NCBI RefSeq assembly: GCF_964355755.1
Contig: NC_092673.1
Location: forward strand, 2,914,001-2,978,000
Direction: 5' to 3'
Length of the DNA stretch: 64,000 nucleotides
DNA from: Antedon mediterranea
Lineage: Eukaryota; Animalia; Echinodermata
The translations under genes were made by a program, and so were the position numbers. Shown piece after piece: positions 20,901 through 60,157 of this stretch. The notes below the pieces were generated by a model. That model made no database searches, was not told the DNA's origin, and was given only the letters and a program-made list of their open reading frames with translations. The stretch's first letter is position 1. Every line of letters starts with the position of its first letter.

Positions 20901-23900
20901 CATTACATGTTTGTTGACTTCATGGCATTGGAAGCCTTTTTATTATTGGAGAATTGTTATGTAACGATGAAGCAATATATGATTCTTTGCTGAGATGTTA
21001 TGGGCATATTGGTGGTGGTGGTGGTATTTACGAAGAAATATATATATTTTTTCACAATTGTTATTGTTCATGAGTAGGCCCTATCCCAGTTATTCAAAAA
21101 GACAAAAGACATTTTATTTTAAACAAAAACTATTGTTTGCCAGACAATTTAAGTATTTTTTTGCTTTAATTTACATTCATTCAGGTAAATAATTTTTTTT
21201 CGATACAGTTTTTGGTCAAAGTGAATAACTATTATTTGACATTAAAATGGCATATTTAAAAAAACAATTTTAAAAGATAATTTTTTAGGAGGACAATATA
21301 TCTTTTAAACTGTTACGTCAACAAGTCGAGCGGCGTTTTTTTTTGTAAGAAATATTTCGTTATTTATAAACAGGGAGGTTTACATATCCCTGATGAATAA
21401 GCTTATTTTATGAACAGTAAATGTGGCATGTGTATTGCCATTTACAAACATCTCCAGCGTATTTATAATCGATAAAAAATATACCAGCAACATCTGTATG
21501 TCAATAATACCTTGAAAACAGTTAAAATGATTTAATGTATTACAACGACGAAAATACAAATTTACCACCAAAACAACAATTGTGAACATACATAACATAA
21601 TACAAATAATGTTGCCGCACTGCGTTGTTAAGTGATTTACATCTGATTTACATATTTTTATACCGTATTATTTGTGTTTTTTTTATATAGCTCTGCCTAC
21701 ACGATGGAACTAGTCATCATGTCCATGGGCACATCACATACATATTTTGTCACATACAGTTTAATATAGTGTAGACAGAGCTTTAAACACTTGTCCGTCT
21801 ATATTTTTAGGGACTCTACAGCTCACTGTCGGTCGGTTGGTCGGTAAACACTAACTTGAGAACGCGACATGGCCTTGTTTATTATGGTTTTGATGAGAAT
21901 GTTCTTCAACCCATTTGAAAACAACATTTTAGTTAATTCTATATGTTTTTGCTTGGTTCATCATTAGGCCTACATCTAAATTGTATTTAATTGAGATTTC
22001 TAAAAGTAAATCGATCAAAACCGATTTGGTTTATTTTTTATTTTTCTAGTCGACAATACTTTACCATAATATCTTACACGATATTTATTTATGAAAATTA
22101 AAATGAGTTCTTTTACCTTAAAGATGTATTGTCCCTTGAAACACAATAAAATGAAGGTCAAAATATTCTAAATTTAAAGTGGCCATATCAAAGTAATACA
22201 GGTATTAAAGTTATTCACTTTAAGTCGAAAATTCGAGCCAAAAACAACAAGTTTACGTAATTAACAGGTAAATTAGTTTGATTACATTTCATCTGGAAAA
22301 TCGTCACGAGCAAAAGTAAACAAATATTTCAAACCATTAGTACGCATTATGCATATGCTAAATAAGGATATTATACAACTCGTCACGGTTAAGAAGGTAT
22401 TTTCACACAGATCATGAGTAAGTTTTATGATTATGCATACAGAGTAGCCAAACAAGCGCGTTTCATTATGGGATATGTTTTGATTGAAAACTTTGACTGG
22501 AAGTCAAAGTTATTTTTTTAACAAAAAAACGTCTGTATTTCAGTTAAACAATTTTTTTTTCGAAAAATTTTTGGTGATAGTTAATAATTATTATGATACT
22601 TCAAAATGACCCACGTTTTTTCGAAATCTTTTATTTTTTATTTTTTTGGAATTAGTCAAAGGGACAATACATCTTTAAACATAACAGGTTGTAGATATTA
22701 AATACTTCCGGACTGAGAAGATTTTCATAGTATTCTTATTATTACGAACAATCATTAAAATTAAAACTATTTTTCTATGTAAAATTTATATTAATAATTT
22801 CGATCCGTGAATAAGAATATCGAAGGCGGTAGTGCATACTTCCGGATAGATTCCGTTTCTATTCTATGAATTTTCGTAAATCTGAACAATCGGATTAAAA
22901 ATGTGTTTCTATGTAATGTTGTAAATAATAAATATTGTTTGTTTGTTGGCAAGATATTATATTATCGTAATTAATATTTATTACGTCATAACCTGGTGTT
23001 ATAATTGTCAACAACTAAAGAGCCGAATAATTTGAGAAATGTGACGGATTTTTACAAAACGAACGAACGTCGTTCAACCGCCGTCAACCCGCACGCGAGT
23101 TCAACCGCCGCCAACCGACGCACGTTGAACCGCCATCAACCCTGCACGCCGTGCGTTGAACCGCCGTCAATCCTCACGTCGCGCGTTCAACCGCCGTCAA
23201 CCAACACGCGCGTCGTTGAACCGCCGCCGTCAACCCGCACGCGCGTCGTTAAAGCGCCGCCGTCAACCCGCACGTACGTGTTAAATTTACCTGCATTTTT
23301 TTAATGAATTCTTTGAATACTATTTTTAGTAACATCATTATTATCTATAATAATAGGCCTACGTACATGTGTATTATTTCCTCATTATTTCTTCATTAAG
23401 TCTTTCAAAATAGACTCAGTTTCGTATGGCTTAGTTCTTGGTATAACAGTCGTAACTATAGACTTATTTCAATGGTCATTGTCCTACCAATTATTAAAAA
23501 AATATATATTTCTTTGAATATATATTTTTTTTTATACATCGTATCTATCGTTTCCTTCAATGAATCCTGGCTCTTCCAAACTTTGAAAAATAAAATCTTC
23601 ATAATTCTTTAAAAAAAAATAATGTGGTTTGTATTTTAAAAAAAATATTAATTCGATCTAAACTAATCTGCGTTTTTGTAAAAATCCATCACATTTCTCA
23701 TACAAAATAATTACATAGCATGTTGTGTTGTTGCAACCTTGGTGTCAGTGCCATTTCACTCGTCTACCACCCTATAATCTTTCTCCAGTAGCATAGGAGT
23801 AGGCCTACTTATAATACAACATCACATGTGTTTCACATGTATCTCCTACTATCTCAAACTATAACATAACCGTAAATGATTCACATTATTTGTGATACAA

Positions 23901-26900
23901 GATTATATTATTCCTGATATACTGGGCACATATTTTACTGTAGTAATGTGGAGATAGGCCTACAGTGGTTGAATAAGGGTATCTCAAATACTGTAATTGT
24001 TATTAGAACGCCGTTTTTGTTTGTTTGGAGGGTTTTTTTTCTTGGATATAAAATACACACTTCGTACCCGGTAAATCATGTTATAATAATGGGTTATAGT
24101 TCTCACTGATTATAAATTGTCTTCCGATAATCTTTCGAATCGTACAGTTACATTCTAGGAATACTCAATGTTTCTTACTAGTATACGTATAATATAACAA
24201 TATTAGTGTAGTTGAATACCATCCCGAGACTACCTGCGTTTAGAGGTCATGTGATTGTGGAATAATGTTCCTCATCTTTCTCGTTATACGTGTTTGTGCC
24301 GAGTATAGCTTCCAGTTGTTATAGGCTATATGAATATAATAACGGATTAATGATTATTTCTCACTCCAGCTTGCCGATTTCCCTTTCTATGGCGCTTTTG
24401 AAGTGTGAACAACCACTATTTTCCCTCCTCTTTTTCGTTATATTTTTCTCCTTTACACCACTGCGTCATTTATATCGCTCTTTAAATACTTTTGTTTGAT
24501 TGGAAAATTAATGTCAAAAGAATTTTTTGAGTACACACTTATCTCAATCAAACCTCTGTCTCCTATGAGCCGAACTCATTAAAATAAACAAATACGGTTG
24601 TAGGTCGTGTTTGACTGTCGATTTTGTGAGAGCAGAATAGTCGTTTATTCCCACTCCTGCTTATTCCAGGACAGTATACCTCCTTAATTGGCATAAGGAG
24701 TGCCCCCTAAATTGAGGTGTCCCACTAGAACGCAACACAGTGACGCAAAGTGCTGTCTTGCGTAATCACAAGTATACAGTAGGAACCGACGACGCAATAG
24801 TGCTGCAAACATCGTGGCAGGCGCAAACACAATGATTGGAAGGGTATTTTCTTACGTTGCGTCGCTAGTGGGACCCAAGCTTTAAGAACGGGTATACAAT
24901 ACTTCCTATGTTATGGCATGATGATCATCCTCCTGCGTTCCTCTTTTATATTATATGTAGCCCTAAAATATAAGCATATATTGTGTTTTTTATTTCCGTA
25001 TTTGATACTTATCTTTAGCTCTTTAAGTTAATGCAAATGTATTTATTAGATATCAAAAACAAGAAATAATGATTGATTCGTGTTATAAGCCATGATTCTT
25101 ATCAGCGTACGATCGTAATGGATTTAATCAATTAATACTATATTGAATAATATAAGATCCGCCAGGGATCTGTGTTCGTTGGTGAAGCCATTATCGATGT
25201 AATGAAAGTCTACATTAAAAAATAATCAATTGTAATTTTTCACAAATCCATTATTGATATTCCAATTGCGTCATTCGTTTTATATTATCGTTGTTTAGTT
25301 CGCTAGCATTGTATTACATGGATGTGATATTTGTACTGAATAATGCGTCTCTGGAGACTGTGAAACGGATTGAACTTCGGTTTCTGGTTACAAACTTTGA
25401 TCGGTGCATGGCTTCCATTCGCTCTTCCTTCTTGTGGAATATTTCGATAGTCCTGTGATGATCCTAATTGGGTTGCAGAATCTGCATCAGCTCATGTCAA
25501 CATCGCATCCTCTTCGATTGTATTATCTCAGCTCATGTCATGTCATCATCGCATCCTCTTCGATTGTATCATCTGCATCAGCTCATGTCATGTCGACATC
25601 GCATCCTCTTCGATTGTATCATCTGCATCAGCTCATGTCATGTCAACATCGCATCCTCTTCGATTGTATCATCTGCATCAGCTCATGTCATGTCAACATC
25701 CCATCCTCTTCGATTGTATCATCTGCATCAGCTCATGTCATGTCAACATCGCATCCTCTTCGATGGTATCATCTGCATCAGCTCATGTCATGTCAACATC
25801 GCATCCTCTTCGATTGTATCATCTGCATCAGCTCATGTCATGTCAACATCGCATCCTCTTCGATTGTATCATCTGCATCAGCTCATGTCATGTCGACATC
25901 GCATCCTCTTCGATTGTATCATCTGCATCAGCTCATGTCATGTCAACATCGCATCCTCTTCGATTGTATCATCTGCATCAGCTCATGTCAACATCGCATC
26001 CTCTTCGATTGTATCATCTGCATCAGCTCATGTCATGTCAACATCGCATCCTCTTCGATTGTATCATCTGCATCAGCTCATGTCAACATCGCATCCTCTT
26101 CGATTGTATCATCTCAGCTCATGTCATGTCAACATCGCATCCTCTTCGATTGTATCAACTGCATCAGCTCATGTCATGTCAACATCGCATCCTCTTCGAT
26201 TGTATCAACTGCATCAGCTCATGTCATGTCAACATCGCATCCTCTTCGATGGTATCATCTGCATCAGCTCATGTCATGTCAACATCGCATCCTCTTCGAT
26301 TGTATCATCTGCATCAGCTCATGTCATGTCAACATCGCATCCTCTTCGATTGTATCATCTGCATCAGCTCATGTCATGTCAACATTGCATCCTCTTCGAT
26401 TGTATCATCTGCATCAGCTCATGTCAACATCGCATCCTCTTCGATTGTATCATCTGCATCAGCTCATGTCATGTCAACATCGCATCCTCTTCGATTGTAT
26501 CATCTGCATCAGCTCATGTCAACATCGCATCCTCTTCGATTGTATCATCTCAGCTCATGTCATGTCAACATCGCATCCTCTTCGATTGTATCAACTGAAC
26601 CAGCTCATGTCATGTCAACATCGCATCCTCTTTGATTGTATCAACTGCATCAGCTCATGTCATGTCAATATCGCATCCTCTTCGATGGTATCATCTGCAT
26701 CAGCTCATGTCATGTCAACATCGCATCCTCTTCGATTGTATCATCTGCATATAGCTCATTTCATGTCAACATCGCATCATCTTATCTTCGATTGTATCAT
26801 CTGCATCAGCTCGCTTCTTTTATATTTTAGTATTCACATCTCCCCCCCCCCCCATTGTTATGTGTGTTATAATCAATCATCAATACAATGTCTCTTAATC

Positions 26901-29900
26901 CTTCACATTTCAAATTTTCCAAACAAAAAATTTATACCATATTCTTTTTATTATGTACTAAAGAATACTTGAAAACAAGGGATTAAATTAGTTCCGATCG
27001 TCATGGTAACTAACTCCAAGGTATTAAATATTGTATTAACACATAATATAGTTTAATGCTTGGATGAAAATGAACGAGTTATGCTACATAAATCAATCAA
27101 TGCGTCCTATATCAATTTCTCAATTTACTTACTGAGCCAAAATGAAGGTAATTTATTGCTATTTATTAGAATTAGCTATAGTGATGATAAGTGAAGTTAG
27201 CTCCAGGTATTATTTTGTTTCTTGGGATGGGGATGGGAATGGTATTAGCGGGAGGCCGACGACTGAACATCGTCTAAAGCTCTATCTACACTATCAAACT
27301 TTATGTGACAAACAAAATGTGATGTGTTTATATATGGACATGATGATATCATATCATACCATATTTGGGCATATCACTACCTTATTTGTGTATATCACAC
27401 CTATGCCTAGATAGTGTAGACTAAGCTTTAGTTTGGGAGTAAACTGGTAGTAGCTACCCATGGCGTATAATGTCTTCATACAGCTTCTCTAAACGAAGAA
27501 CAATTCATATAGGCGTAGCCTAATACATTAAGCCAAGGTAGATATTGGAACACCTTGTACAAAATTCTCAAAAATACGGATGTTACGTCTATAATGTGAA
27601 ATTATGACCTGTTTTTGAAAGTGAAAATTAATAGCGTGTCGTGTCCTGATCATTATGTTTGTCATTATAGACTCATGTTCCTTCCGCTCACTCTGCTGTT
27701 TGTTTTAACAGTTATCTCATTTTTCATCATAACAATAGGTTGCTGCTATTATTCATAAATCACGAACCTTTACAAAAATGTAGTTTTTACTTTAAAGACT
27801 TTATACCTCCATGTTTAACAAAATTGCATGGAAACGGTAAATGAATACATACACACCCCGGAGCCGTTCAAAAGGTGGCAAATAAAATTACAGAGAAAAT
27901 GGGCTTTTAGATATTTAAAATTTCAATAAAATTCATATAAAATTCCAAAAATGCTTTGCAGGAGATACCATTATACTGTTTACAATTAATAATATTAATT
28001 AATTAAACTTTTGGAAACCAATATTTATATTTCTGAAAAGGTCTGTAGGAACGAAACACTGGGTGAGAAGAGAGCAGGTTTATGTACATTTAGAGTTGAT
28101 TATTCAATTAGAAAAAGAAAAGTTTGGCAGAAAATCCAGAAAAGTAGGCCTAACTCAATATATCAAAATATCTACAGCTATATAATGTAAAATCCACTTT
28201 ATGGGAAGCTTCTAAATGGTTGCATTTACTCACTCCATGTAATGTATTCGTTTATTACTGTAATAATTATTGATTGTTTGAAAATTACGAAAATGCATGT
28301 ATAATGACATAATGACTGAGTCGTGTGTAAAGACGTTACAATGTGATTAACAATCTTTTGTAGGCTTTGATGTTTTCTATGAAATGTTTTCAACATGTAT
28401 CAGTCAATGTCACGCAACCTTTCTTACGTAGATAAATAACTTTATTAACATCAAAACATAGTCATTAATTTGCTTTCGGTAAAGTAATTTGTTTTGTTTG
28501 TTTGGGGATTTTTAAAAATTTTTCTCGGTATTAGTTTTGTATTTGATAATATCATTTTGATATTAGGTTTTTTTTATTGTCATTGTTATCTGTTGATAAC
28601 GTTATATCATAGTTTTCAGAATTCTTGCGGAATTCCTGTGGCCTAGTTATTGCAATCATTCCCGGACAAAAACACATGAAGGCTGCCTACGCTTTGTTGA
28701 ATTTAGGAATGCTCTCCGAATATATTCATACATATTATGTTGTACTGTTTAGTTAGCATACCTTCTTTTTTCTGAGTGAGATTCTGGTGGTATAGTTATA
28801 TGTCTAGTTCTTAATTCTGTGAGTGGGTATTGTACCTCCACGTTTATCTGCGCTTGTATTAGGACCTCTCGGAATACTAATTAGGCTACTCGTGTAACTT
28901 CTCCTGCTTTAAGAGATACTGGTAGGCATATAGGTGTTTGTTTACGTTTAAGGTCCATTTACACTAGGATGATAACGATCGACGATATAAATAGATAATT
29001 ATGCATTTTTCATATATATAAAAAAAGAAATCTAACAAGTTCTCATCCTATAAACTATAGTAATGTTACCGGTGGGAATAAAGGACGCCTTGAAACTTTC
29101 ATCCGTCGGGCTGGTAAAATGATTGGTCTGGAACTGCCTTCCATTACCGATGTGCACCTAGAACACCTCCAGAAAGATTTCGAACGCATTGAGTCGGATG
29201 CCTCTCATCCTCTCCACAAAGTGATCATAGACCAACTTAATCCAAGTGGTAGATTGAGGCTCCTCAGTGTGAAAACAAATCGATATGCCAAATCCTTTAT
29301 TTCCTCCGGTATCATCCAGTACAACAGGAAGTCAAAAAGATAATATTATCTTGTATTTTTTTAGCTGTTTTTATATGAATGGTTATATGCTATATGTGTA
29401 TTTATTGTATTTTCTTTGTTTTTTTTATTATGACGAGCATTGAATTTCCTTTTTGAGGATCAATAAAAGTTATCTTATCTTATCTTATCTTATACTACTA
29501 TATTCTTCCTTTGATGATGTTCACACGTCCAATCAAATGATGTCAAGATTGATAAGAAAAATAATATCGTGACAACAATTTTATTGTTTTTAATAATCAT
29601 GACGTCATTTGATTGTGATTAAAAAATATGGGTTTTTTTTATCAAAGACAGCATAAATGGTTATCCTATAGTTCTAGAACGAAAAACCTTTATTATTTAT
29701 TTTGTTGTGTAATAAAAATGCATGCTTATCTTTCTCGTCCTAGTGTAAATGAGTCTGTATTTCTATGAGAATGACCTTTAAATTAAAAAGGAGATTTTTT
29801 GGTGTTCCGCCATCCAAACAAAGTTTTAAAACGTTATTATAATCTTTGTTCATCAAATAAAGGATTGACCCACTAATTTATTATATGAATTGAATTAGGT

Positions 29901-32900
29901 CATGTTTCATTCTGTCACACTTGACTGCTTTCAATATATTGCATATGTTATTAATCATTTGAAATCTTAACATCCGGGTTTTGGGTATCAATACTTCCTT
30001 ATCAATAATTCCACACGCAATAGTCTCCTTGTGGGGATAGTCCGATGAGACCGAACAAGGTAAATGGACTTGTGCCAGTGCCTTTGGATGCAACGTAAAG
30101 CTCTGTCTACACTATCACTTCAAATCAAACTTGACAAAAAAATGTGATGTGCCCATCATAATAGACATGATGATGTCATATCACTGCCATATTTGTGCAC
30201 ACCACACATTTTTTTTAACTAGTTTGACCTGGCACATCTTTATAAGCCTTTAAGCAGCTACGACGAGAGAGGTGGACATTTTGAGAACATTCGAGTTGTT
30301 TTTTGTTTTCATTTTTAAATTTTAAATTCTTTACTGTGATCACTTCGATATTTAAATGTCTTGTCAAAGTCACAGTGGTCGGTGGTTTTCCTTGATTTAC
30401 CATATCATTCAAGAACCGTAAAGATACATATTATGACTATGCACTATAATGTGTCACTATAATAATCACTAGTAGAAGATTATTTGGATTTGATATGGAT
30501 TAATATGTCGGGATTTGATAATAATCCCAAGTTAGTTTTAATTGCTCCTGATTTAAATAATCTTGAGTCGGCACACTTTCTTTCTTCTTCCCCATAATAT
30601 TGTCTTATTTTAAAAAAAATTACGATCTTTACCAAACACATTGAAATAATAGCACGACAACATTGTGGCAATTTAAGGACATACTTTAAAGACCAATTCT
30701 AGATCTCCTTAAAATCTGGCGCTTTTTTGCACGCCCCTTCTTTCGACGACAAAGGGCGTTAAAGACTTTCTAGTATAATTTTAGTTTGGGCCCATTGCCT
30801 AGCAGATCACTGTCTGCAAGTAATGTAATAATTTACATAACAAGACAACTGAAATCATGTTGATCAAAGACAATAAGAACGAAATATGAATCACTTAACA
30901 TCTAATAACGAGAGGATGTCTTAAAGATTTAAAATTCCAGTGAGTCAAAATGACTGTGCAGCGGCATTTAAGTTGAATTGACGTTTTGTGGGCACCATGG
31001 CTGCTTGTTGACATTTTGTATCACAGCCACGTGGATTACACACCGGCTTGACTAATTGACAGAATCGAAAGAAAGGGGGCTTTCAAATTCTTTATAATTA
31101 AGTTAATTAAGCAGTGGAGATATGGCTGTTGTTTTCTTTCCCTTTAAACAGATATGAATTATGTTGTAGCTGTTAGTATTTAGGCGTGCTTTGTTAAAAC
31201 CGAATGTCACTAACCAACGATATTATATATTGTAGGCCTGTAGCTAAAGCTTGGTTCCCACTAGAACGTAACGCAAGGACGTAAACGCAACGCAAGCGTT
31301 TCAACCAATGACAAGCGAAGTTATAGACAGTTAGCAATCACAAGCGAATAAGCCATCGCTTGTGATTGGTCAATTCACTTGTGTTGCGTTACGTCCTTGT
31401 GTTGCGTCGCTAGTGGGAACCACGCTTTAGGACGAACATTTTCTGCAGTTTTGTAGTTCTGTTGGGAAGAAATACAGCCCCCTACTAGTGGCTCTTGCAT
31501 GGAAGCCTACATCAGCTAAAATATAAATCTGTATAATAAAGAAAGAAAAATAACAGCCAAAACAGCCAATCATATTTCCTGCATAGCCTAATTAACTTGA
31601 TTATAAAGAATTTGAACCCCTTTCGTATATTAACATAGGCTGTTAGAGTTGGCCCTTACGCCTAGTTATATTGCGAAATCAGATTTTTAATTGATGGGTT
31701 TCAATGGGGATTTCAAAACATACCGTATGCCTTAAATAATAAAAGGACCCGGGGCGAGTTATATCTCAACCCCTGGATCCACCTACGTTTTTTCTCTGAG
31801 ATTCTTGATCTGTGTTGTGTTTATTGCAAGTTTATCATTCATTATGTGACTTTAGTTTGTAATATGAGCGTTAGAGACATCGATATTTTATTAGGCCTAC
31901 TGGTCCTTGATTTTAGAAATAAACTACGAAGCGGAATACAGTAGAGTATTAGGAGTTGGGTAGTTGAGTGGTTAGGACATTTGACTGTCACACAAGAGAG
32001 ACCGGGTTCAATTCTACTCGGCTGTAAATGAGTACCTGATTAAAAATACTAGGGAGGACAAGGCGCTGTGGAAAGTAACTGGCCACCCTCCACATAATGC
32101 CGAGGCAAAATGAGCTCCCCGATGAGCTCCTAACAGTTCATTACTCATTATGTTCAGAATTGAATACGGGACCTTTACCTGTTTTTGTTTTGTTGCTGTT
32201 GTTTTTGTATAATATTATGTACCATTATATGAGCGTGATGGAGATTGCGTTAACACTGGATAACTACTTATACCTGGTCTTGCATTATTTAGACTATAAC
32301 AGATGGCATTTTGATATAATATTGATTGATAATACAACAGCCATCATGATATTGATGATACACACGACGCAGGTAGTGAGTTTAGTCCAGATATAATCCT
32401 CCCGACTGTACGCGCTTAAATCACGCAGTTTTAAGTAGGTGCTTATTCGATGCGAACAAGCAGAACACGTCATAACGTGAAAATGATTAATGTGTGATAT
32501 TTAGGTGACAGACAGTGTACTGTTGTCAGTTTGTTAACTAAATACACGAATTGTAAAATATGATAAACACAATCTATTTGAGTCAAAGTGCAAGTCCCTG
32601 GTAGGCCTACAAAAATGTTTCAATTTCTTATGCAATAATTCTCGTGGTGTCGCTGACGAAATTACACTTTTCCCTGTGACAAAATAATGGTCTACTATCA
32701 TGCCTGCTTGAAAGTAAACCTGCGATGTTTGAAACACTATTGCGTCGTCGGTTTCTACTTGTGATTACGCAATATTTTGCGTCGATACGTCGCTGCGTTG
32801 CGTTCTCTAGTGGAAACACGCTTTAGCTCCAGAACGCAAGGATGTGGACACAACGCACGAGTTAACACGTACACGCGACAGTTTGGATAAGCTATCGCGT

Positions 32901-35900
32901 CATGGCTCAGTAGTCACTTGCGGCGCGCTTGCTTCAGTGGGAACCATTGAATTTAAATTTAAATTTATATTTATACTGGGTAACCTCTTCAGTCAAAGAC
33001 TGGTCTCCCAGAGGGCCCAGTTGGTGATAAGTGGCTGTGATGTACTAACTAACTAAACACCGGGGTAACCCCCTACTCGTCTCGAAAGATGTACTAGGTT
33101 CTTTAAAGTTCACACGAGCTAGATGTGTACACTGGACCTACGGTTTATAGTCCTTATCCGAGAAGACTCGTTCTACCACCAGAACCATGGAGTGAGTGAG
33201 CCTCGAACCCCTGCCGATGTTATGGCTACGTAATTACGGTTCCACTGTCTTAACCGCTCGGCCACTCACTCACTCACCAAGCTTTTAAAATTAAATACAC
33301 GTCATCGAAAGCAAAACTATGTTTCAACATTTGTTTAGTAAACATGCGTTGTCATAAATGAAAAACTTATGCCATGGAACATGGAAGATCGGTTCTCAAT
33401 ATGATTATCTATATAGGCCCTAAATGGCTGGTGAAATCTTAGGGAATGCACCGCCCAAATCAATTGGAATAACAAATGATTCACGAGTGCTACAACGTAC
33501 TTTTACCTACTAAAAATGATGACATTATGAATATGTGTTTACATGAAATGTTTTGATAAAATAACCAGACAAGCACTTGATTTGCTTGTTGCAATATATG
33601 ATTTAAACTGTATACAGTCAAAGTCGTTGACTCCGCCCACTGTCTTGCCATTGGCTCGAAATATTGGCTTTGATTACGTAATGATCCTTTTTACACATGC
33701 CCGTGACTAACCGTGACGTCATAGTTCGTAATCTATAAAGCACTGGTGCTTTACAAAGAGCTCATACACTAAAGCAACCTGACAAACAAAAGAGCTGGAA
33801 AATACGAGATTACATCATACCTAAATACAGACGTGTTTTATACTTGTGGGTATATACCAGCTTTTATTTCAGACTTTATCATTTGATATTTTCATCCAAC
33901 GAATTCAAGTAACTAATACTATAAACAACACAGTTGAAATGGAAGAATTTGGCCAGGATACAACATGCTACTCTGAACGAAGAATGGCAAGGCGCAACGC
34001 ACTGCCGAATGTGATGGAAGGTATTGAGCCTAACCAGTTGCAGAACCTGAGAGTACCTCTTCTTGGTTTGCCGAACTATACCAGTGACGAGGAACACGAT
34101 GAAACCTGTGATTTACCCCATGTTACCACCAGTTCATCTGAATGTTTCTTGTCGATTTTGTCATACGATGTCGCCAATAACAAGCACAACGCAGCAGATG
34201 AACACAATGTGAGCATAGGAGGACAGCATTCGAATGTCATGGATAAGGACATTATGAACATTCCTTGTTATCGTCGTCGAAGGAACGCGTTACCCGACGC
34301 GTTAGCCATACTTGACGACAAAAGCCGACAGAGAATAAGCTCACTGGGATCAAAGCACCGCGGGAAATATGGATTAAGGCCGTGGTAAAAGAAACAGTTA
34401 TTTTCTTGCAGGACTTTTTTAAATGCATAACTCGTTTATTATAAACAATGATATATAAATACAAGTCAATAATCACAGCGGTATAATGTTCAACTAATGA
34501 TTTATAAGCAGGACTTATGTTCAACCAAACTTAGCAGACGAACTTTGAAATTTTAGAAACACACAGACTAACTACTGTACAAGTTACATACGTCAACATT
34601 TTCTTCACTCAAGTTCTTTTTTAGTCGGCAAGTTTTGTTCTTGGCGAGCCTACTTGACATTTCCAACTCGCATAAAGACTTTGAATGCACGGTCCAAGTC
34701 ACGGGGACTGTTTTTCTGGCGCCGCTTGTCTTACATTATATTGTAGTAATTGAGCATTAATGTAAAACCAATACTGTACTAACAAACTAAAATATTCGTA
34801 TATTTAAATTTTTAAATCACTAAATCACTGAATTAATATTATTTAATAACACGTACATTATCTTTAATATTATGTAAACATATGATAAGTCATATTATAC
34901 TACTATAGGAACAGAGAAATATTATATTCTTGGGATAATGCGAACAATGCAATCTTTATCATCGATAAGGCTCTGTAATCAAGTTGTTTTATTATTGTCT
35001 GTCTGAACCATTATTGCTAAACTTCATATTTCACGTGAGTTTTGCTGCCCTTATCTTATGTTGTTACGATTAGGCCTAGGTACATTTTGGAAAGTAATAA
35101 TACTGTACAGCAAGTAATAAAAGCTAAGCTTATCTTGGCAAATAAATGTCTTCACTTTCAACGTTGTTCATCACAAAACGGCCAGTTTTTCTGAGTAATT
35201 GCTATGGTATATAGCCGTAATGCTGCTATATACTCTAAATGAATATAAATCACAGATATAGACGAGTTTATTTCGCCTTCCGACAAACCGTTTATATTAT
35301 GTATGCATATGTGTCTTTCATGTTTTAGGAAAGATAATTTCGATATTAAAAGCATTTTTTCACGAATTGATTAATAAAGAATAAACTATTTAATATAAAT
35401 TATTCTGATTGTTGTAATATTTTGTTATGTATGTGGGCGTGACGGTTGCTAGACCTAAGGTGGGAGGTGTTCGTTGTCGAGTCATAGTGAGGTGTTCGGA
35501 CGTTTCTTAAGTAAACTCGGATATAGGCACAGTAATCACTTCCTCGTCGGTATCCAGAACACAGGATAGATACAGGTAGCAGTCCGTTCAGATGGGTATT
35601 AACGGGTATATACCTTAGTCCGTTCAGATGAGTGTTGTTATACTACAACGATGAAGCAGCAGAGTGTGTATGGTGCGCTAGATAAAACATAATTATCATC
35701 ATTACAGTGTGAACGTTATACAATGCAGTATTGATATTAGACCACATTGACGAATGTCAAATAGGCCTACCATAATAGTCATAATAATCATGGTATAATG
35801 ACTATCATAATAGTCATTATATCATTTGACTGATAGTTTGTGGTTTTTCGGGTTTTTATTAGTAACTCTATATCCCACAATTAATTGCAAGATTCCAGTT

Positions 35901-38900
35901 TTTGATGATTGGGGTATATCTTGTTTTCTTCTACAGAGAGTATGCTATGTTGTGTCGCACTGAAATTGCGTTCATTTAACATACAGCAACAATATAGTAT
36001 TGAAGCCATTGCCACTATAAATGTGCTATGTTGTTTTGGAGTGTTTTCCTCGGCCCAACGTCTCTGTTATATTGATACAGTGTGGTAAATGATTTAAAGT
36101 AAAGACGTCATTTCCGTTCTACAGGTTGAATGTTTTCATGTCTCTAGTAGTGCATACGATATGGCAACATTCGATAGCCCGATGTAGGCTAACAATTATA
36201 AGCAAGCCAATCTTTAACACACGTTTGTGCTTTTTTTACCTATATGTCAAATTACCAAGCACATATTTGGAATATTTAATGATTATATTCTTCACTCTCG
36301 GCAAACTGAGATTCAATTTTATATTAAAAACATTGAAAAACACGGACAGTGAAATGTCATTTATATGTATCACTTTTGCACCTCATTTCACAACAGTAGG
36401 CCTAAATGCTAGATCTTATTCAAAATAGGCCTACTCGTCGCGTCGTCAAAATTAATAGACAAGCGGTCGTTTAAAAAAAACTACTAATTGCGTGGCGCAC
36501 CTGTAGCGCGACGCAGTTATATATTTGTAAACGTCGTACGTCATGGTAACTTTACAGCCTACTCTATGAGAGCTATAGGCCTACCCAGAAATATTTCAAC
36601 CATTATTTACTGGTAGTCCTATCACAAATCTCAATACACACACTCTGAATAAGTTAACTTATTTCTCTATGCTTTCACCGATTAAGCTAGTTATGCCATC
36701 ACCGGCAGGCCTATCTACCGTAGGCTACACCATCAATTAAAAAAAATCATCCCTCGTTATTGAATTCTGAACGAGTAATGATAATTCGTTCCATATCATT
36801 AAACAAGATAACTATATAAGATTACAATGTACTTTATTGTAGACTGTATTGCTACTGTTGCCATGACTATTGTTGATTGCAGTAGCGGCATACTTCAGTA
36901 CCGTACCTAAACAAGTTAATATTACTGATTAGTTGAATTTCCTGAACATCTGGCACTTTGCTTGTTGTTAATAAAAGTGAATTCATGTATGGTTTCGGGC
37001 CAAGGTTGATAATAATGTTATAATAATGAATAACCTACTTTCAGATTGTTCATGTAAAGAAAAAAACAATAAACAAACATCTATGAGACATCTATGAGAG
37101 CTTAAAGCTCTATCTACACTATCAAACGTTATGTTTGATGTGCCAAAATAGTGATATGCTCAAAAAGGTATAATAGTCATATGACATCATCATGTCCAAA
37201 TATGGGCACATCACACTTTTTTTGTCACTTTAGTTGTAGGTATAAAAAATGCATATTTATCTTTCTATCGTCGACTGTTATCGCCCTAGTGTAAATGGCC
37301 TTTAAAGATCCATATTTTGCGCGCGTGCACACGTAGTTCGTGTGCACGCAAAATAAATCAAAGTTATCAGTGTTGGTGGGACCGGGAAGCGTTTCGTATG
37401 GTTAGGGTTTTAATTCATAAACATTTAAAATATAAATTGCAATTGAGTGCCACTTTAAAAAAGGACAAGGTGACAGTGAGTTTGGAAAACCAAAAACAAA
37501 ATTGAGTCGAATGATGATATGGTCTGGGGAATAATTCCCTGGGAAAGTAGGCCTACCCTTTTCTTTTTTTTATTAAAAAAAGAATAAAACGGTTTTTTTT
37601 TTTATTTCCGTCAGCAATAAAAAAATTATGAAAACCACCTGATGTATTATATGGCAACCAATGAATGGTATTGTTCAGAAACTAGGTGCGTAATAACGAA
37701 TCCCTGATGAATTGTTATGCAATGACTCTACCACCAGAATACTTCATATCAAAATTCCCCTATAAAGAATCGGTTATTGCTTGCAGGCTCGATCATGTAG
37801 AGGCCTAACATTCCAGTAGTTCTGTGAAATCAAATACTGTAATGCGCTTCACATGTGCTCCTCAAGCATTCACCAATGAAATATATAGAACGGTAAATCG
37901 GTAGCACTATTTGGGGTAATACATACCCGTCCTACTTAAACAAACTGTTATTGATCCAAAAGAAAACCGTAAGATACATAGCAAATGCTCCTTTATCCCA
38001 TTCCAATCCTTTATTGGTTATCCGCAACGAAGTTGCAGGATAACCTCTTGTGATTGTACGAAATCATTCTGTATGATTTTTGTGTAACGCTTTTCTCTAA
38101 AACTCGCAAACATAACATTTCGGTAACTATCTTAACATATTGACATTTACGTAACGTCGTCAAGCGAAGCTTTTCATGACGTTTACAATTGCGCAACGTG
38201 ACTTACGCGCGATTTAACGATTTTGTCGTATTTAACATAGCTCGACAACCAAATAACATTTCAACTTGAAACTTTGCAAAAGTTTAATTTATATCATGCG
38301 CTAACTTTCTGTTGAAAAAAAATTCCGTGTTTTAAACAAAGTTACGCGCGCACGCGCATTTAAAATTTCAAAATGCGCAAAATTAATTTCTAATCAACTT
38401 TCTACGCGTTTCATGTCGTTTTAAGCATGTCAAAAATTCCCGCGCGTGCGCACATTTTTACGTGTGCGGTGCACACGTAGCATTGAAAACGTATTTTTTT
38501 TCGTAATTTATGTTTTTCCAGCCTTTTCTAGTAATTTTACCAAATTTTAAACAATTTCGACTTAAAGATACGTCATACGAGCACGTCGAATTGAACAATT
38601 TGCGCGCGTTTTTTATGAAAAGGTTAAACAATTCGTTTAAAATATGCCTTTTTTTAAACAGTCGTAATTTCTAAACTAGACGGTCAACTTTTTGTGGATG
38701 ACATATTCTAGAAGTAGATGAGTTGTAGATATCGGATCAGGTATTAATATGGCTAACCGGACATTGTGACGTCATCGTATGGCCACGCGAATATAAAATT
38801 TAGGATTTTTGTATCTTTCGTCATAGCTCATCACATTGAATAGAGCGCATCTCCACTTATCCGTTTTCTATTTTCACCCCGATTTTGATATTGTCTAGGT

Positions 38901-41900
38901 CAATCAACTATCTTTCGCATGAGTTAAAAATATTTTAATTTTTTTGACGTCATCATGCCTAAAAATTTAAATCACGTGTGGCATTAATTTCATCTTTACA
39001 GTAAATTTTAATCTGTTATAGCTCGTAAGAATAAAATGTGATAATCACGATTAAAACTTTTCCTGGAAGCTATTGGATTGTAGATACGAAATTATGTAAA
39101 AATGTTGCCAATCGGATGTTGTGACGTCATCATATGGCCAGTTAAATAAAAAAGGTCGTATTTTCATCTTTTGCGTCATAATTCATTACATTTAAAAGAG
39201 CGCGCATCAATATTTAACGTATTCAAATTTCTTCTACACGCTAATACGTTGTTGCTGAGATAATTTCCTTTCGGAATTGCTAACTTCGCGTTTCATTTTA
39301 AAACCGTCAACATGTTAAAAATTGCAATAAATAGCGGGTCCCGTAATTTCACCTATTCTACACTGTATGTGATATGGATACAGATTATACTGTGTATACT
39401 ATATATGAATTTAAATAATAAAATTCAGCAATAACAACATATCATATTCTTCAGTTCAGGTCATAATGCCAACGTGAACACTTCCTTTTGTCCTCAACCT
39501 ATCCCTTTAATGTTAATGTTGCACCACTTGCGCGGCGGATAACCAAACTCGTCAAAGTGACGAGTTACATGTCTAGTTTTCTTCTTTTGGTCTTCTTAAA
39601 ATTCAGGATATTAACCATCTTCAACAAAGTGTTTTCCTCTATTCATGGCTAAACTCGATCCTGCCATCACACTTTGATGATTTATTTAGTTTCAATCTTA
39701 ATTTTCATAACCACAGTACTCGGAGCGCAAATCAAATACGTATTCCTTTTTTTAAAACTACTTCTTTTAAACATAGCATTAAGTTCACTGGTCCTAAACT
39801 TTGGGATAACGTACCAGTTAATATAAAAAGTGCTTTGTCTAAGAAGATTTTTTCTTTTAAATTGAAACGGCACCTGTTATCTAGTTATGTTTAATTATCC
39901 TTTCACTCATTGTAGTTTTGATATTTAGTCTTTTCGGTACCCTGAATCTAAAAGTCTTCATTACTGTTTTTGTCCTGTTTCCGGTTCCCGTGTTGTCCTG
40001 TTTTTGTTTTTTTTTTCATTTTCTATGGGCTGCCTTATACAAGCTTTGCTTTTTAGGAATGTTGCCCCTCTTATTTTAATAATTTTTACTGTTAATTTTT
40101 ATTTTCTATGAAAGACAAGAGAAATAAATGTTACTTTGATTGATTGATTGATTGAAAATCCTTTAGGGCACAATTTATTGAGAGACCTACTGTACCTTTA
40201 TAGTATGATGTATTTATGCTTTGTCTGCACTATCAACATGTATGTGACAATGTGATGTGCCCATGGACATGATGATGTCATATCACTACCTTATTTGGGT
40301 ATATTACTACCACATTTGGGCACATCACACTTTTTTTGTCAAAATAATTTGATAGTGTTATAGACAGAGCTTAAGGCCTATTTGAGAATTATCATCTAAA
40401 GGCAGAGTATTGGCAAAAATACGTTAGGCCTATATAGTTTGTAATTGCTAGGCCTATATTCTTTTATACTATTAGTTTGTAAGCCACAATATACACTAAT
40501 ATAAACATGGTAGACCTACGGAGACAACTCCTGGAGTCGATGGAATTGTTATAACCGTGTCGTCATCCATTCATACCAATGTGTTGGTGTTTTTGAACTG
40601 AACTGAACTTTTATTGTATCTCTTTTAAATCAGAGGCACAGTCTCAATGAGATGTGCAACAAGTTTACAGTGAAAAATAATACATACACACTTAAATATA
40701 AATACAAAACAAGAAATTAGACATGAGAACAAAATTACAAAAAAAAAAATTTAAGAAAACTGAGACAGATTAAATACTAAGAAAATGGATAAATTAAGTT
40801 TGAGAAGGAATTGTATTATATATATCATTTCGTGTGTTCCAAGCCATGGTCAGAAAAATTTTGCAATGTTTGTCGAAAATAATACTTGCTGGGTGTTGAT
40901 CAACTGAAAGTAATCCTTCTTACTGCGCAGCTTGAGGCTAAAAACTGAATTCCATGCCGCGGTGCAATTCTTCTTCTTGTAGTTTCTACGTAAGTAGCCT
41001 CTGTAGTACATATCCTTTCTAATTTCCATGGTTTTATTCATTTAAAATAACCGCAAAGAATGTCTATTTTGTTAACAAACGTTTGTGGCAAAAAAAAAAA
41101 AAAAACGTTTTTGCTCGTAATTTATGATTCATATCGTTGCTTCCTAATGTCAGATTTGCATAAAAATGTACTTCCAACTATTATTAGATATTCTTCTAAT
41201 CAACTAACACAATTTTTAAAATTGAAAATAAATATTCGTGCGCTTGTCTCTTTAAATGTAACATTATAGAAAGGTAGATTGATTTATCAATAAAAAAAAA
41301 CCTTCATTGAATGTTTTTTTCCATCTAAAATAACAATTCTGTGAATTTGTCAAATTGGAAGCTCACATCCTTGTGGTTTCAATATATAGGCCTATGTTGT
41401 ATTGACCAATAATTGTATTTTATACCATAAACTTTCCTTGCTTTGTGATTACATCATGTGATGACGTCACAATACGGAACACGGATTGATTTTTATTATT
41501 GGTTGTAATTTGCCACATTTTGTCTTTTCCCATGAGTAATGGTATAATGCATGGTACTGTTGGTATATCAAGGATAACGAGTATGGAGCGCCAAATACCT
41601 GCTATTTACTTTAACCCTAACGCTTTCAAACTGGATGCGATGGATATGTATGGCGCGCTAAGTAAAATAATTTGTCCGTGCTTACTCTAAGGTATCTCTA
41701 TTGCAATCTTAAGATATTTCTATTAAAAATAAGGAACCTTTATTGAACCAAGATATCTACTATCTTCCGAATAAATGACAGTGGCGCGCCATACTATATA
41801 CGGATGTTGTAGTGGATCTCTTCTTAGGCTTGTAAATCTTGTAGAATGGTCTGAACTTAGCGGCCTACTTTCCTCAGTGAATGTTTGCAAAATCGCCGTT

Positions 41901-44775
41901 ATCTGTTTGTCTATAGTCAGTTTTTATGTAAATCGATATAACATTTGTTTATTTTAATATTGTATCAATAACACGGCCGGTCGTGAGAAGTGTGTTTACA
42001 TTACGATAATTATAATTGTTTGTATACTAAGATTAGGACATCCTAAACAATCGACACTTATACAGATCCGCAAGTAGAGACAAAAACCATATTGCACAAA
42101 CCACTAATTCTTTAAGATTATATATTTCCGCTGGTATTTTTTGTTGTTTTAGTGTTCAGGGCTTAGGCCCATAGGAGCGTTTGGGAGCAGACTGATATTA
42201 TGTAAGACCTCTGTAAAAGGGAAATATAATAATTTTAATATACGTTGAATATTCATGAAATTAGCCCAGTTACTCTATTAAATACCTGTTAAATATGTCC
42301 ATACGTCTACCAAAATGACTATCATAGCCTAATATATTTAGTGTGAGTACCTTTATATTTTGTTGATTCTAGTATAGGCCTACATGTTGCATTCCGTGAT
42401 TCACGTAAAAGTGTTTCAATTAGATCTGTTCATCCCATAACACGAAAGCTATACATTATCAGGGAAGAGTGATCTGATATTATCATCACCATTTCATCAT
42501 GTTTTCATCACTCATTTTAATTTTGCATTAATTATTGAAAGAGAGTACGTCTAATTTATGGCACCTTTGGGCGCGGTTCTTGCTCGACTTCCCCTCGAAT
42601 TTAACTGATTTGTTAAAGCCAAACACAAACGAGCGGTAATAATGGTGAAACTATGTTATTTCTTATGATCACACACAACGCGGAGCGGACGGACGAGATA
42701 GATACAACAGATTCTACGTGGGACAAGCTACGCGGTTTTCCGCTTGCCGTTACCGTTCGATCGTATGAGTATATGGGCCTTTTTGACCATACAACGCGGA
42801 GCGGACGAGCGGTTTCGCTGGATAGATACAGGTTCTACATGAGACAAGATACGCGGTTACCGCTCGTCTGTATAAATTGGCCTTTAACCATCTGGGAATC
42901 AAGTTAATTGATAATTGTCGTCTGATTATTGACTACGCGTCATCGAATGCGCAATAGCGCTCACTTGGGACAACATTAATTAGGTTGTGAGTCGTGATGA
43001 TTTACTGTTCCTGCTGAATGGATGAAGGACCTTTAGCAAAGTTCATTTTAAACCGTCGTTTATTTTGATATTTCCCTTCCTCCTACTATAACTATACTGA
43101 CGTTAGTACAACCAAGGCAATCTAACAGGATGCTGAGCTCTGGAGATCAAACGGTTTATATATGGCTGCCTGCTACACGATGAGTTCCACGCCCCTTAAC
43201 AGACATCGCGCCTCCGGTGAATATGTATATAGTACTGTTGGTATTATTTGTCCTGTTGGTATTATTTGTCGCAGCCAGACATAAGATCAAAGGACTGACG
43301 AGGCAAACCCAGTTTCATGCTGTTCGATCTCAAAGACATGCATGCATCTAATCATTATTGAATATTCTGATCTTCTGTGAAGAAGAAATGTTAAGTCTAC
43401 CAAAACCATTACATCTCATGTTTGTGCAATGAAGTATGGTTGAGGTTGATAACCACACCAAATGATTTTTTTCACAGTATAGTTTAGGTAAACGATAAAA
43501 TTAAACCCGCACGTGTTTATTGCGTAGATATCTCTTGATGGATAAACAGTTCATATACGCGCCACTGATTGCGACGCGTCCTAATTGAAAAAAATATATC
43601 CTACATTTTACAGATATTCTGACTGATGACTTGGTTAGACAAGAAGATAACGAAGAACAACGGAAATATATGGGAGTCTGTAAGCTGAATAAGGAAAACG
43701 CTAAGGTAAGGTAGCTATGTTTAGTGGATGGGGAGAGTTCAGTCGTAATATTAAAGCGTGGCTCCCACCAGTGACGCAACGCAGCGACGTATTGACGCAA
43801 ATTGATGTATTGCGTAATCACAAGTGGGAACCGACGACGCAACAGTGCTGCAAACATCGCAGGTTTGATTTCATACAGGAGGGAGAAAACACAATTATTG
43901 GAAGGGCATTTTCGCACGTTGCGTCGCTAGTGGAAACAAAGCTTTAGCCATCTACCTTTCAGATAAAAACTTTTACAGTTTTGTTCAAAGTTGTTTATTT
44001 TCTAGCCTTCAAACAAATTTTTGTCCAACATTTGTAATATTCTGGAGATAACAATGGGATTAATGATGTGTTGTTGTTGTGAAGAAGATGACGTTGATGA
44101 CGTAGAAGATAAAGACATTGGAGATAATTACAAAGATAATGTTGAAGATAAGGCCAGGGGGACAATGATAGATCGAATGCAATATCAGGGAGTTGATGAC
44201 GATGATGATAATGCCGATGATACAGATGACAAGACACCTTTATGCATTGTTCATACACCGAACAATTTCAATTTAATCTAATGTAATAAATAATAATTTA
44301 TGGTAATCTATTTTTATTTAGCATCGCCGCTTGGATATTATCGTGTCTCCATGGGATGAGTATCACTGCGCGCTTGTACATTTCACAGGTTCTGACCATT
44401 TCAATCGCTCATTGAGGGCGCTTGCCATAAAGAAGGTTTGTTCAATTATTACCTACTGTATATTGTTTTTTTTTAAAGTGTACGATATCATTTATTATAT
44501 AACACCTAAATAAATTCCTGTCATTATATTGGACGATTGTGGGTCACATGGCGTGCAATAGTACGCACTATTAAACGATTAATTATTTGTATAATAATAT
44601 CTGTATTTAAATTCTGCAGGGTATGTCATTATCTGAGCATGCACTGAGGCATGGAGTGATACGAAGAGGCAAAGTAAAGGTTCATAATGGAACACCTTTA
44701 CCGGTCCACTCGGAGGAAGATGTGTTTACTCACCTTGGCTTGGAATACAGAACACCTCATGAACGCGATTACTAA
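2959..44775 (+). CDS. POLL: DNA polymerase lambda (family X; BRCT, 8-kDa lyase and Pol X catalytic domains), 587 aa
   Basis: Coding exons 2959-3696, 4264-4341, 4595-4702, 5137-5316, 5843-5971, 6322-6490, 43614-43705, 44322-44435 and 44620-44775; all GT-AG with consistent phases. Motifs [63 protein letters not shown] and GMSLSEHAL are colinear with human Pol lambda. Confidence 0.96.
3722..3925 (-). mobile_element. 3' end of a Rex1/Babar-like LINE with (TATCT)n tail
   Basis: Reverse complement closely matches about 29280-29492 (end of ORF2, 3'UTR, AATAAA, microsatellite tail). Confidence 0.75.
6559..6862. repeat. Minisatellite, about 43-45-bp unit, about 7 copies
   Basis: Unit aataactacgcaaatattcaaccaattggaacgctcgccttgg repeated head-to-tail. 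Confidence 0.9.
8325..8640. mobile_element. Non-autonomous element with a long terminal palindrome (possibly Crypton-derived)
   Basis: About 80-bp-arm hairpin centred on aactcggctttgcctcgtt. Its 5' part (aacacctatataaattcctgtca...gtgggtcacatggcgtgc) recurs at about 9960-10078 (-) and 44497-44595. Confidence 0.55.
9614..9921. mobile_element. MITE family B (TIR AGC(T/G)TGGTTCCCACTAG); young copy 9679-9859 nested inside a related copy
   Basis: TAA/TAA target duplication at 9676 and 9860. Near-identical 180-bp copies at about 15435, 15640, 15979, 17710 and 31248. Variants at about 12024-12566, 14527, 16834, 24718, 32740, 43755 and 44776; collapsed TIR pair at 19384. Confidence 0.88.
10171..10209 (+). 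ncRNA. Minimal type I hammerhead ribozyme motif (Penelope-like element remnant)
   Basis: GCA-CTGATGA-A-GGGC(tagtgtt)GCCC-GAAA-GC-TC-TGC gives both conserved core boxes, a 4-bp stem II, a palindromic AGCT mini stem III and a short stem I. Confidence 0.65.
11262..11333 (-). pseudogene. tRNA-derived (Asp-like, ATC loop) sequence embedded in a dispersed repeat
   Basis: A box TGGTCTAATGG, anticodon arm TCTGC-ATATCAA-GCAGA, GGTTCGAGCC B box and T5 terminator, but a defective acceptor stem. Second degenerate copy with shared flanks at about 20325-20497 (+). Confidence 0.7.
11495..11672. repeat. 14-bp tandem repeat (gaatgaaatgtttt)n
   Basis: Direct inspection; about 12 imperfect copies. Confidence 0.9.
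12105..12508. mobile_element. MITE family C (Harbinger-like) inserted in a family B MITE
   Basis: TIR AGGCCCATTTACACTAGGGCGATAAC and TAA/TAA TSD; carries two TGACGTCA. Other copies at about 28951-29757 (split by a LINE), 4725-4980 and 37236-37302. Confidence 0.85.
13177..13363. mobile_element. MITE family F
   Basis: TIR (A)GRCCAAWTTACACAGACGAGC with TWA flanks; further copies at about 17043-17221 and 42617-42883. Confidence 0.8.
15211..15363. repeat. 31-bp tandem repeat, 5 copies
   Basis: cttccgagtaggcctatgcctgctcgtatgc starts at 15211, 15242, 15273, 15304 and 15335. Confidence 0.95.
20051..20140. repeat. GC-rich tandem repeat of about 17 bp (gcgccgcggtagaataa), 5 copies
   Basis: Direct inspection. 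Confidence 0.85.
22122..22674. mobile_element. Non-autonomous Kolobok-like DNA transposon
   Basis: TIR AGATGTATTGTCCC...GGGACAATACATCT flanked by TTAA on both sides. A related left end sits at 18320 and a related right end at about 21303. Confidence 0.8.
23068..23283. repeat. GC-rich degenerate tandem repeat of about 30 bp
   Basis: Recurring gtt(c/g)aaccgccgtcaacccgcacgcg units. Confidence 0.8.
25480..26811. repeat. 50-bp satellite array, about 27 monomers, with higher-order structure
   Basis: Monomer cgattgtatcatctgcatcagctcatgtcatgtcaacatcgcatcctctt, with 45- and 46-bp deletion variants. Confidence 0.97.
29062..29492 (+). mobile_element. 5'-truncated Rex1/Babar-like LINE inserted in a family C MITE
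   Basis: ORF end MIGLELPSI...DASHPLH...[19 protein letters not shown] resembles the Rex1-type ORF2 C-terminus; followed by AATAAA and (TATCT)n. Confidence 0.75.
31070..31625. mobile_element. Old long-TIR element with a family B MITE (31248-31426) in its centre
   Basis: gaaagggggctttcaaattctttataattaagttaatta at about 31071 is inverted relative to about 31588-31624. Confidence 0.6.
31950..32185 (+). mobile_element. tRNA-derived SINE (Deu/Nin-like body)
   Basis: tRNA head with A and B boxes and GTC loop, then ctcggctgtaaatgagtacctg, and tail gggacctttacct. Confidence 0.65.
32949..33277 (-). mobile_element. Full-length tRNA-derived SINE (V/Meta-like central domain)
   Basis: Head gtggccgagcggttaag...ggttcgagg; body taaaccgtaggtcc...taaagaacc...gagtaggggttaccccggtg; AT-rich tail. 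Partial copies at about 47383-47580 (+) and 53041-53249 (-). Confidence 0.8.
33631..33770 (+). promoter_or_regulatory. TATA promoter with proximal CRE for the nested PKI-like gene
   Basis: GC box 33631-33640, inverted CCAAT at 33650 and 33663, TTACGTAA 33674-33681, TGACTAA 33704, TGACGTCA 33714-33721, TATAAA 33734-33739, and Inr-like TCATAC with its A at 33764 (30 nt from TATA). Confidence 0.75.
33939..34388 (+). CDS. Intronless PKI-like (cAMP-dependent protein kinase inhibitor-like) protein with two pseudosubstrate motifs, 149 aa, nested in POLL intron 6
   Basis: First ATG after the TATA/Inr, in strong context gaaATGG. Motifs R15-x-x-R18R19N20A21L22P and R112RRRNALPD; LRVPLLGL at residues 37-44. 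Non-repetitive sequence. AATAAA at 35116 and 35141. Confidence 0.8.
   Translation: MEEFGQDTTCYSERRMARRNALPNVMEGIEPNQLQNLRVPLLGLPNYTSDEEHDETCDLPHVTTSSSECFLSILSYDVANNKHNAADEHNVSIGGQHSNVMDKDIMNIPCYRRRRNALPDALAILDDKSRQRISSLGSKHRGKYGLRPW
38011..39360. mobile_element. Helentron/DINE-1-like (HINE) non-autonomous element
   Basis: Terminal hairpin GGTTATCC-GCAAC-GAA-GTTGC-A-GGATAACC after a T-rich site, and internal diverged repeats about 355 bp apart (38765 vs 39120). Confidence 0.55.
39675..40154 (+). mobile_element. 3' fragment of a CR1/L2/Crack-group LINE
   Basis: Translation [18 protein letters not shown]...[18 protein letters not shown]...KLKRHLL (one frameshift) is typical of the ORF2 C-terminus; followed by AATAAA and a (TTGA)n tail. 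Confidence 0.75.
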
Positions 44776-50250: not shown

Positions 50251-50647
50251 TCCAGGTTACACTTGTAAGAACCAGTAACCAAATCATGTTCTAAACTCCA
50301 ATGAAACCAATTTTACTGAGTTATCATACAACCAATAAACCAGTTACTACAATTAACTGGTTTTAATTGGCTTTTAACTGGAATTTTCTCCTGGGTCTGT
50401 GATAGTAGTTGATTGGTAGTTTTAATTCCAGTTCAAAACCAGTTAATTGTAGTAACTGATTGATGGTACAATAACTACCGACTGAGAACAAATACCAAAG
50501 TCCAGTTAAAATTCCAGTTATTGAAGTAGCTGGTTTAGTAGTAGTACGATAACTGTTTAAAACAGGTATTTAAGCATCCAATTGGTCCCAGTAGACTGTA
50601 GGGTTTAGAACATTAAGGTTACTGGTACTTATATGTGTCAACTGGGA
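50251..50647. mobile_element. Non-autonomous TIR element with CCCAG-type ends (possibly EnSpm/CMC)
   Basis: ccaggttacacttgtaagaaccagtaacc is inverted with ggttactggtacttatatgtgtcaactggg; many internal aactgg/ccagtt motifs. Confidence 0.55.

Positions 50648-51779: not shown

Positions 51780-60157
<8,378 letters not shown>

Follow-up and report, generated by a model that had tools for sequence, protein, structure and literature searches.

The window analyzed here, the whole stretch of 64,000 nucleotides of Antedon mediterranea DNA, contains the gene for DNA polymerase lambda (2956-44775, + strand), the coding exons of which are spaced by some hundreds of bases up to roughly 1 kb except for one repeat-filled 37-kb intron. 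Disregarding frames in tandem repeats, the longest ATG-started plus-strand frame (at least 90 codons) in this intron is an ORF of 149 codons. Given that the flanking exons match polymerase lambda and that a GT..AG intron between them keeps the frame, the 149-codon gene is nested within the polymerase gene on the same strand (Table 1). Elsewhere in the intron, a 50-bp tandem array of about 27 copies (25492-26812) leaves all three plus-strand frames open for 376-523 codons, and is likely a repeat rather than a gene. Downstream of the polymerase (46785-64000), the translations of three sets of exons read like a PLP-binding protein (PLPBP/PROSC; ~46800-49400, + strand), a mitochondrial Hsp70 (~51800-60200, - strand) and a succinyl-CoA ligase alpha subunit (~61900-63700, - strand). 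The intron-rich genes of the window, together with its GC content of 34%, suggest an invertebrate animal.

Table 1. Features of the nested gene and of the polymerase lambda intron that houses it (positions in the window).
Feature	Position	Strand	Basis or remark
Coding exon of DNA polymerase lambda on the 5' side of the large intron (matched part)	6313..6490	+	phmmer E 3e-17, human pol lambda 400-452; GT donor at 6491
Polymerase lambda intron of 37,123 bp housing the ORF	6491..43613	+	GT..AG ends, frame kept across the joint, flanking exons adjacent in the human protein
Upstream motifs: GC box 33633, reverse CCAAT boxes 33650 and 33663, bZIP palindrome TTACGTAA 33674	33633..33681	+	Motif scan
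Full palindromic cAMP-response element (CRE) TGACGTCA, 225 nt before the ATG	33714..33721	+	Motif scan; recurs in L001
TATAAA box, 205 nt before the ATG	33734..33739	+	Motif scan
High-depth stretch of X1 contigs, likely transcript	33784..35595	+	Depth 632-1238 vs 0-5 in flanks; contigs give no strand or ends
Coding sequence, 149 aa	33939..34388	+	Translation, homologs; mostly disordered by prediction
Module 1 pseudosubstrate, R15 to L22, P-site Ala21	33981..34004	+	RRN kept in every relative
Module 1 helix (31-37) and L34/L37/L41/L44, putative class-3 export signal	34029..34070	+	AlphaFold2, module table
Acidic, poorly conserved linker	34071..34262	+	12 D/E and 2 K/R in the linker as cut
Module 2: Y111-RRRRNAL, P-site Ala117, then helices 117-123 and 127-139	34269..34355	+	Alignment, AlphaFold2
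Following polymerase lambda exon	43614..43705	+	E 2e-5, human pol lambda 457-479

An earlier note on this DNA had called the ORF at 33939-34388 (+) on account of two RRNAL motifs, and translation places these at residues 18-22 and 114-118; R15, R18, R19, N20, A21, L22, L37, L41, G43 and L44 likewise stand where that note had put them. The second module that it described is present, but its range of 112-120 is one residue off (the tyrosine is residue 111 and the P-site alanine residue 117). All six frames of the 64-kb window contain no RRNA[LI] string other than these two, and no paralog of the 149-aa protein was detected within the window. Only two coding variants were seen, namely a synonymous one at codon 121 and H53Y in the linker. 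Among 200,000 shuffles of the ORF protein, two RRxA[LIMV] motifs arose at a frequency of 4e-5; since this motif was picked post hoc the shuffle test is weak, and conservation constitutes the real test.

Five sequencing runs from two studies, none of them recorded as RNA, contain the locus, with X2-X5 representing a single sample, possibly the one from which the window derives, and X1 belonging to the other study. In X1, which is RNA by guess as its type is unrecorded and whose contig depth is a poor guide to expression, the stretch listed in Table 1 stands out against a depth of 2-7 in other unique parts of the polymerase intron; depth in X2-X5 is flat across the locus. A single X3 contig corresponds to 33340-36800, and an X1 contig (33867-34678) crosses the ORF without a joint; hence, the coding sequence is uninterrupted. 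Thus, of the earlier description of a nested intronless gene, the nesting and the uninterrupted coding sequence stand, while the 5' UTR may be interrupted. The X1 depth fits an abundant unspliced transcript whose leader has no ATG codon and whose 3' UTR measures 1.2 kb or more, and the gene is likely expressed. The X1 contigs are split at 33866/33867, beside an acceptor-like tttcag (33872), and the upstream contig has half the depth, a pattern that two alleles, or another first exon spliced onto this tttcag, could each produce. A read-through product joining the polymerase exon to the ORF can be rejected, since it would be out of frame: the donor is in phase 1, whereas the site at 33872 is in phase 0 relative to the ORF. 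The upstream X1 contig also has 27 extra letters (33757-33783); if these continue the locus, the contig would end about 23 nt past the TATA box, near the expected start. At 35571-35616 an X1 contig departs from the window sequence with letters that resemble a local short repeat; hence, the X1 sample differs in its repeat allele within what is likely the 3' UTR, and the 3' end is provisional.

A word-index search with the single protein retrieved no homologs. HMMER searches of 1.84 billion representatives yielded three matches (E 1e-5 to 3e-4), and profiles combined with cluster look-ups raised the relatives to 15, all of them unnamed. These fall into three groups, each 23-33% identical to the 149-aa protein (8 of the 16 proteins compared); the weakest link to the family is that of the P0008 group, which was retrieved at E 0.11 and the later, better score of which is circular. 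The proteins range from 114 to 265 aa, with two modules in 12 of 16 and three in the remaining 4, and their P-sites are 46-142 residues apart in the relatives and 96 apart in the 149-aa protein; the linkers are acidic in the 7 proteins counted. No PKI chain was recovered from the PDB by sequence searches with the protein itself or with profiles of the family and of the module, and the ESM Atlas gave no usable match for P0001 or P0009. The conservation of both RRNAL-type motifs, which the earlier note had named as support for its reading, extends to all 15 relatives, and in 8 full-length proteins, aligned independently of the module anchor described below, neither RRN motif varies; as the relatives were retrieved through RRNA-type motifs, this conservation is partly selected. 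The locus carries an intact nested gene of an unnamed conserved family with repeated modules.

The module spans about 25 residues and consists of R-R-N-A/G-hydrophobic followed by a helix, with Ser or Thr never occurring at the phospho-site. Module statistics were drawn from 15 modules of 7 non-redundant proteins, which were cut on RRN[AG]; hence, Arg at P-3 and P-2 and Asn at P-1 (each 15/15) and the P-site residue (Ala in 14, Gly in one) are anchor positions fixed by design. Outside the anchor, P+1 is hydrophobic and P+3 is Asp or Asn in 15/15 modules, while P+5, P+8, P+13 and P+16 are hydrophobic in 12-14 of the 15, and conservation extends some 17 residues beyond the motif. The alignment of first with last modules has an hhalign probability of 94%, and downstream of the motif they are more similar than in 4999 of 5000 column shuffles; by these profile comparisons, the modules are true repeats. 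In a module tree the first and last modules are mostly separate (support of 0.99 for a last-module clade when P0008 is excluded), suggesting that they have kept distinct features. An AlphaFold2 model of the 149-aa protein, from 8 sequences, has three short helices in a disordered chain (pTM 0.20, mean pLDDT 56).

The earlier note had interpreted the protein as a divergent PKI that could bind two catalytic subunits of PKA, and had proposed a comparison with the Pfam PKI family (PF02827). PKI is indeed the best Pfam match, but at 14.4 bits (E 0.047) it lies below the gathering cut-off of 25 bits. It is also the best Pfam match of 5 relatives, all in one group (E 0.012-0.051, at best 16.4 bits), and a PKI match of any kind is seen in 6 of the 16 proteins, with the other 10 having none. 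Both modules of the 149-aa protein contain the PKI-type arginines at P-3 and P-2, P-site Ala and hydrophobic P+1, and the protein is predicted to be intrinsically disordered with short helices, as is PKI. The PKI-alpha spacing pointed out earlier holds in the 149-aa protein but is partly particular to this species: the P-6 Arg (R15) of its module 1 is found in 2/15 family modules, 12/15 having Arg or Lys at P-5, and an aromatic at P-11, the position of PKI-alpha F10, in 0/15. A tyrosine is seen at P-10 in the 149-aa protein and at P-9 in 4 first modules, and AlphaFold2, at low confidence, predicts no helix in residues 1-13.

The missing last hydrophobic residue of the export signal, likewise recognized earlier, is a family feature: it is N46 here, and P+25 is hydrophobic in 0/7 first modules. 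For PKI lacking this residue, the part of PMC5358978 on which we draw gives CRM1 binding at 150 uM versus 35 nM. The class-3 CRM1 spacing (i, i+3, i+7, i+10) fits L34/L37/L41/L44, with L37, L41 and L44 as far from the P-site as their counterparts in PKI-alpha (PMC7234811, in part), and is complete in 5/7 non-redundant first modules, 4 of those belonging to one related group. Pro40 breaks the module 1 helix, and the class-3 pattern is also matched by known non-binders (PMC5358978, same part). It is therefore possible but doubtful that the helix following module 1 mediates nuclear export. Given its PKI score, size, number of sites, lack of the P-11 aromatic and incomplete export signal, the 149-aa protein is, as judged from its sequence, not a formal member of the PKI family. 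What survives of the earlier assignment is that the nested gene is real and conserved and encodes two pseudosubstrate motifs; its product is likely PKI-like in action and may share common ancestry with PKI.

Examination of the upstream DNA revealed features that were not part of the earlier reading, which also lacked the three-module relatives and the weak TC1 link discussed below. A full CRE is followed by a TATAAA box with a spacing of 20 nt, and no ATG occurs in the leader. CRE and TATA together are a mark of cAMP-inducible promoters. The same layout is found in L001, an intronless homolog with 31% identity that was retrieved with a search pattern built on the final motif of the protein, its promoter playing no part in the retrieval; here a full CRE and a TATAAA box lie 253 and 224 nt before the ATG, accompanied by a GC box and CCAAT boxes. 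The CRE-TATA layout is thus present in 2/2 members with upstream DNA, a small sample with one homolog. The pattern occurs in 0/200 shuffles of L001 and is expected about 0.002 times per 300-nt leader by an empirical rate that derives from the sole other CRE-TATAAA match in the window, itself situated in a repeat. Global alignment of the window and L001 promoters does not align the CREs, only the order and spacing of the motifs being common to the two, and the GC and CCAAT-type motifs, being short and common, are weak on their own. L001 also displays, at 1210-1300, one site resembling that of NF-kB and one resembling that of C/EBP, together with additional CRE-like half sites. Full CREs are over-represented in the window (9 in 64 kb); the eight others, at 12267, 12334, 19065, 29600, 38767, 38945, 39122 and 41462, lie in several cases within repeats, and the window's repeats may spread CREB sites.

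A PKA pseudosubstrate makes its contacts through the P-3 and P-2 arginines, the P-site Ala and the hydrophobic P+1 (PMC13186710 and PMC4674680, each in part). Where a chain otherwise drifts but keeps, in repeated copies, a site that cannot be phosphorylated, the best reading of that site is a decoy; we consider such a role highly probable and, were it correct, PKA would very probably be the main target. Together with the promoter, the sequence evidence leads us to favor, on balance, a multi-site PKI-type decoy inhibitor of PKA that would be induced by CREB through the CRE-TATA promoter as a delayed negative feedback. Under this proposal, cAMP would free the catalytic subunits of PKA, which would activate CREB at the CRE; the newly made inhibitor would then plug the active site through its P-3/P-2 arginines and the hydrophobic P+1 residue, one catalytic subunit per module, and turn PKA off. 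PKI(14-24), which lacks the upstream helix, has a Ki of 340 nM versus 7-19 nM (PMC7723848, in part). As the upstream high-affinity helix is missing here and the P-6 Arg that PKI-alpha also has is absent from most of the family, each module is probably weaker than PKI-alpha and of moderate affinity. Free PKA-C is a monomer, and combined with weaker sites this suggests that additional modules would raise capacity, not avidity.

An unlikely but serious alternative is that the modules are decoys aimed mainly at some other basophilic kinase (Akt, RSK, SGK, PIM or dimeric PKG), or at a different kinase each; it is the main rival because P-5 is basic in 12/15 modules. Combined with the P-3 Arg and the hydrophobic P+1, this residue fits R-x-R-x-x-S, the consensus of Akt/RSK-type kinases, and the modules for the most part lack the P-6 and P-11 determinants of PKI. 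The separation of first and last modules in the tree would also agree with separate targets, and a CRE responds to RSK/MSK and calcium signals as well. Two linked sites would, furthermore, gain real avidity against a dimeric kinase. Nevertheless, as in PKI, neither the P-2 Arg nor the P-1 Asn varies, the best Pfam match is PKI, and module 1, with Met at P-5 and Arg at P-6, suits PKA over a kinase that requires Arg at P-5. Scans for kinase activation-loop motifs returned fragments and one cNMP-domain kinase only. The latter type of architecture was seen by eye in L002 (1123-2559, - strand), a contig of a giant-virus bin with a 479-residue frame that fuses a cyclic-nucleotide-binding domain to an AGC-type kinase; six further contigs in bacterial genomes or bins (L003-L008) have fragments of eukaryotic PKA-like kinases, several apparently broken by introns, which are likely contamination.

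We regard it as improbable that the module is instead a helical docking unit of the TC1 type (TCIM/AVPI1) for a non-kinase partner, with RRNA serving as a basic anchor or import signal. TCIM/C8orf4 and AVPI1 are members of the TC1 family (PF15063). Positions 9-42 of the PF15063 model match module 1 of P0002, P0003, P0004 and P0005 (E 0.0016-0.27), one of 8 isolated modules matches as well (E 0.076), and the conservation downstream of the motif would be in keeping with a docking helix. However, all these matches fall short of the 27-bit cut-off and extend over less than half of the 75-position model (the best has 18.8 bits over positions 15-42), the 149-aa protein has no TC1 match, and the strict Asn-Ala/Gly-hydrophobic after two arginines exceeds the needs of an import signal. 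That the ORF is a chance frame or a non-coding intron stretch with two accidental motifs is scarcely credible. Such a reading could draw on the lack of a named homolog, of a Pfam match above cut-off, of a usable ESM Atlas match and of a word-search match, but it is largely refuted by homologs that have both motifs, the shared promoter layout of L001, the high-depth X1 cover and the GC content of the ORF (46% vs 33% in the 3' flank).

Full-text searching of the open-access literature found no report of a multi-site PKI, of a CRE-driven invertebrate PKI or of a PKI-TC1 link, and no paper on TC1 proteins as PKA inhibitors. To our knowledge, the PKIs described so far have one site each. Endogenous kinase-inhibitor proteins are few, with six classes in a 2015 count, and PKI homologs occur in many invertebrates (PMC4674680, in part). 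As invertebrate PKIs and the two-box Inka1 are known, neither idea is new alone. On a more speculative note, the favored PKA decoy inhibitor might represent an old multivalent branch of PKI that served as a CREB-induced shut-off of PKA in invertebrates, with a module that bridges PKI and TC1 and with vertebrate TC1 proteins possibly being hidden PKA inhibitors; we hold this wider scenario to be unlikely. If true, the poorly understood vertebrate TC1-family proteins would become distant relatives of PKI. The favored multi-site inhibitor with its conserved CRE-TATA promoter would by itself amount to a direct transcriptional feedback loop by which cAMP signals are ended in animals used for the study of cAMP-dependent memory, oocyte maturation and metamorphosis. 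The weak TC1 link offers a testable function for vertebrate proteins of unclear mechanism.

In comparison to known systems, the family resembles PKI-alpha/beta/gamma in its disorder, the R-R-N-A-hydrophobic motif, the Asp/Asn at P+3 and the leucines that follow module 1 at P+16, P+20 and P+23. It differs from PKI in having two or three sites rather than one, in its length (114-265 aa versus 70-75), in lacking the high-affinity helix with Phe at P-11 and in the placement of the basic residue at P-5 rather than P-6. Invertebrate PKIs include K09E9.4 of C. elegans (PMC4674680, in part). The likeness to TC1 (PF15063) is a weak profile match to the module-1 region in 4 of the 16 proteins, below cut-off and over less than half of the model, with no match in the 149-aa protein. 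A precedent for a two-headed kinase inhibitor is Inka1 (FAM212A), an inhibitor of PAK4 with an iBox and an iBox-C (PMC4674680, in part), which similarly has a duplicated pseudosubstrate box in a single, otherwise poorly conserved chain; it is set apart, by description, by its P-site Pro, its target PAK4 and an unrelated motif. Finally, the PKA pseudosubstrate in the C-tail of Smoothened also lacks the salt bridge of the P-6 Arg and is assisted by extra helices (PMC13186710, in part). As described in that portion, however, it is part of a membrane receptor and is gated by phosphorylation, whereas the protein reported here is a free small protein with repeated sites, likely under transcriptional control.
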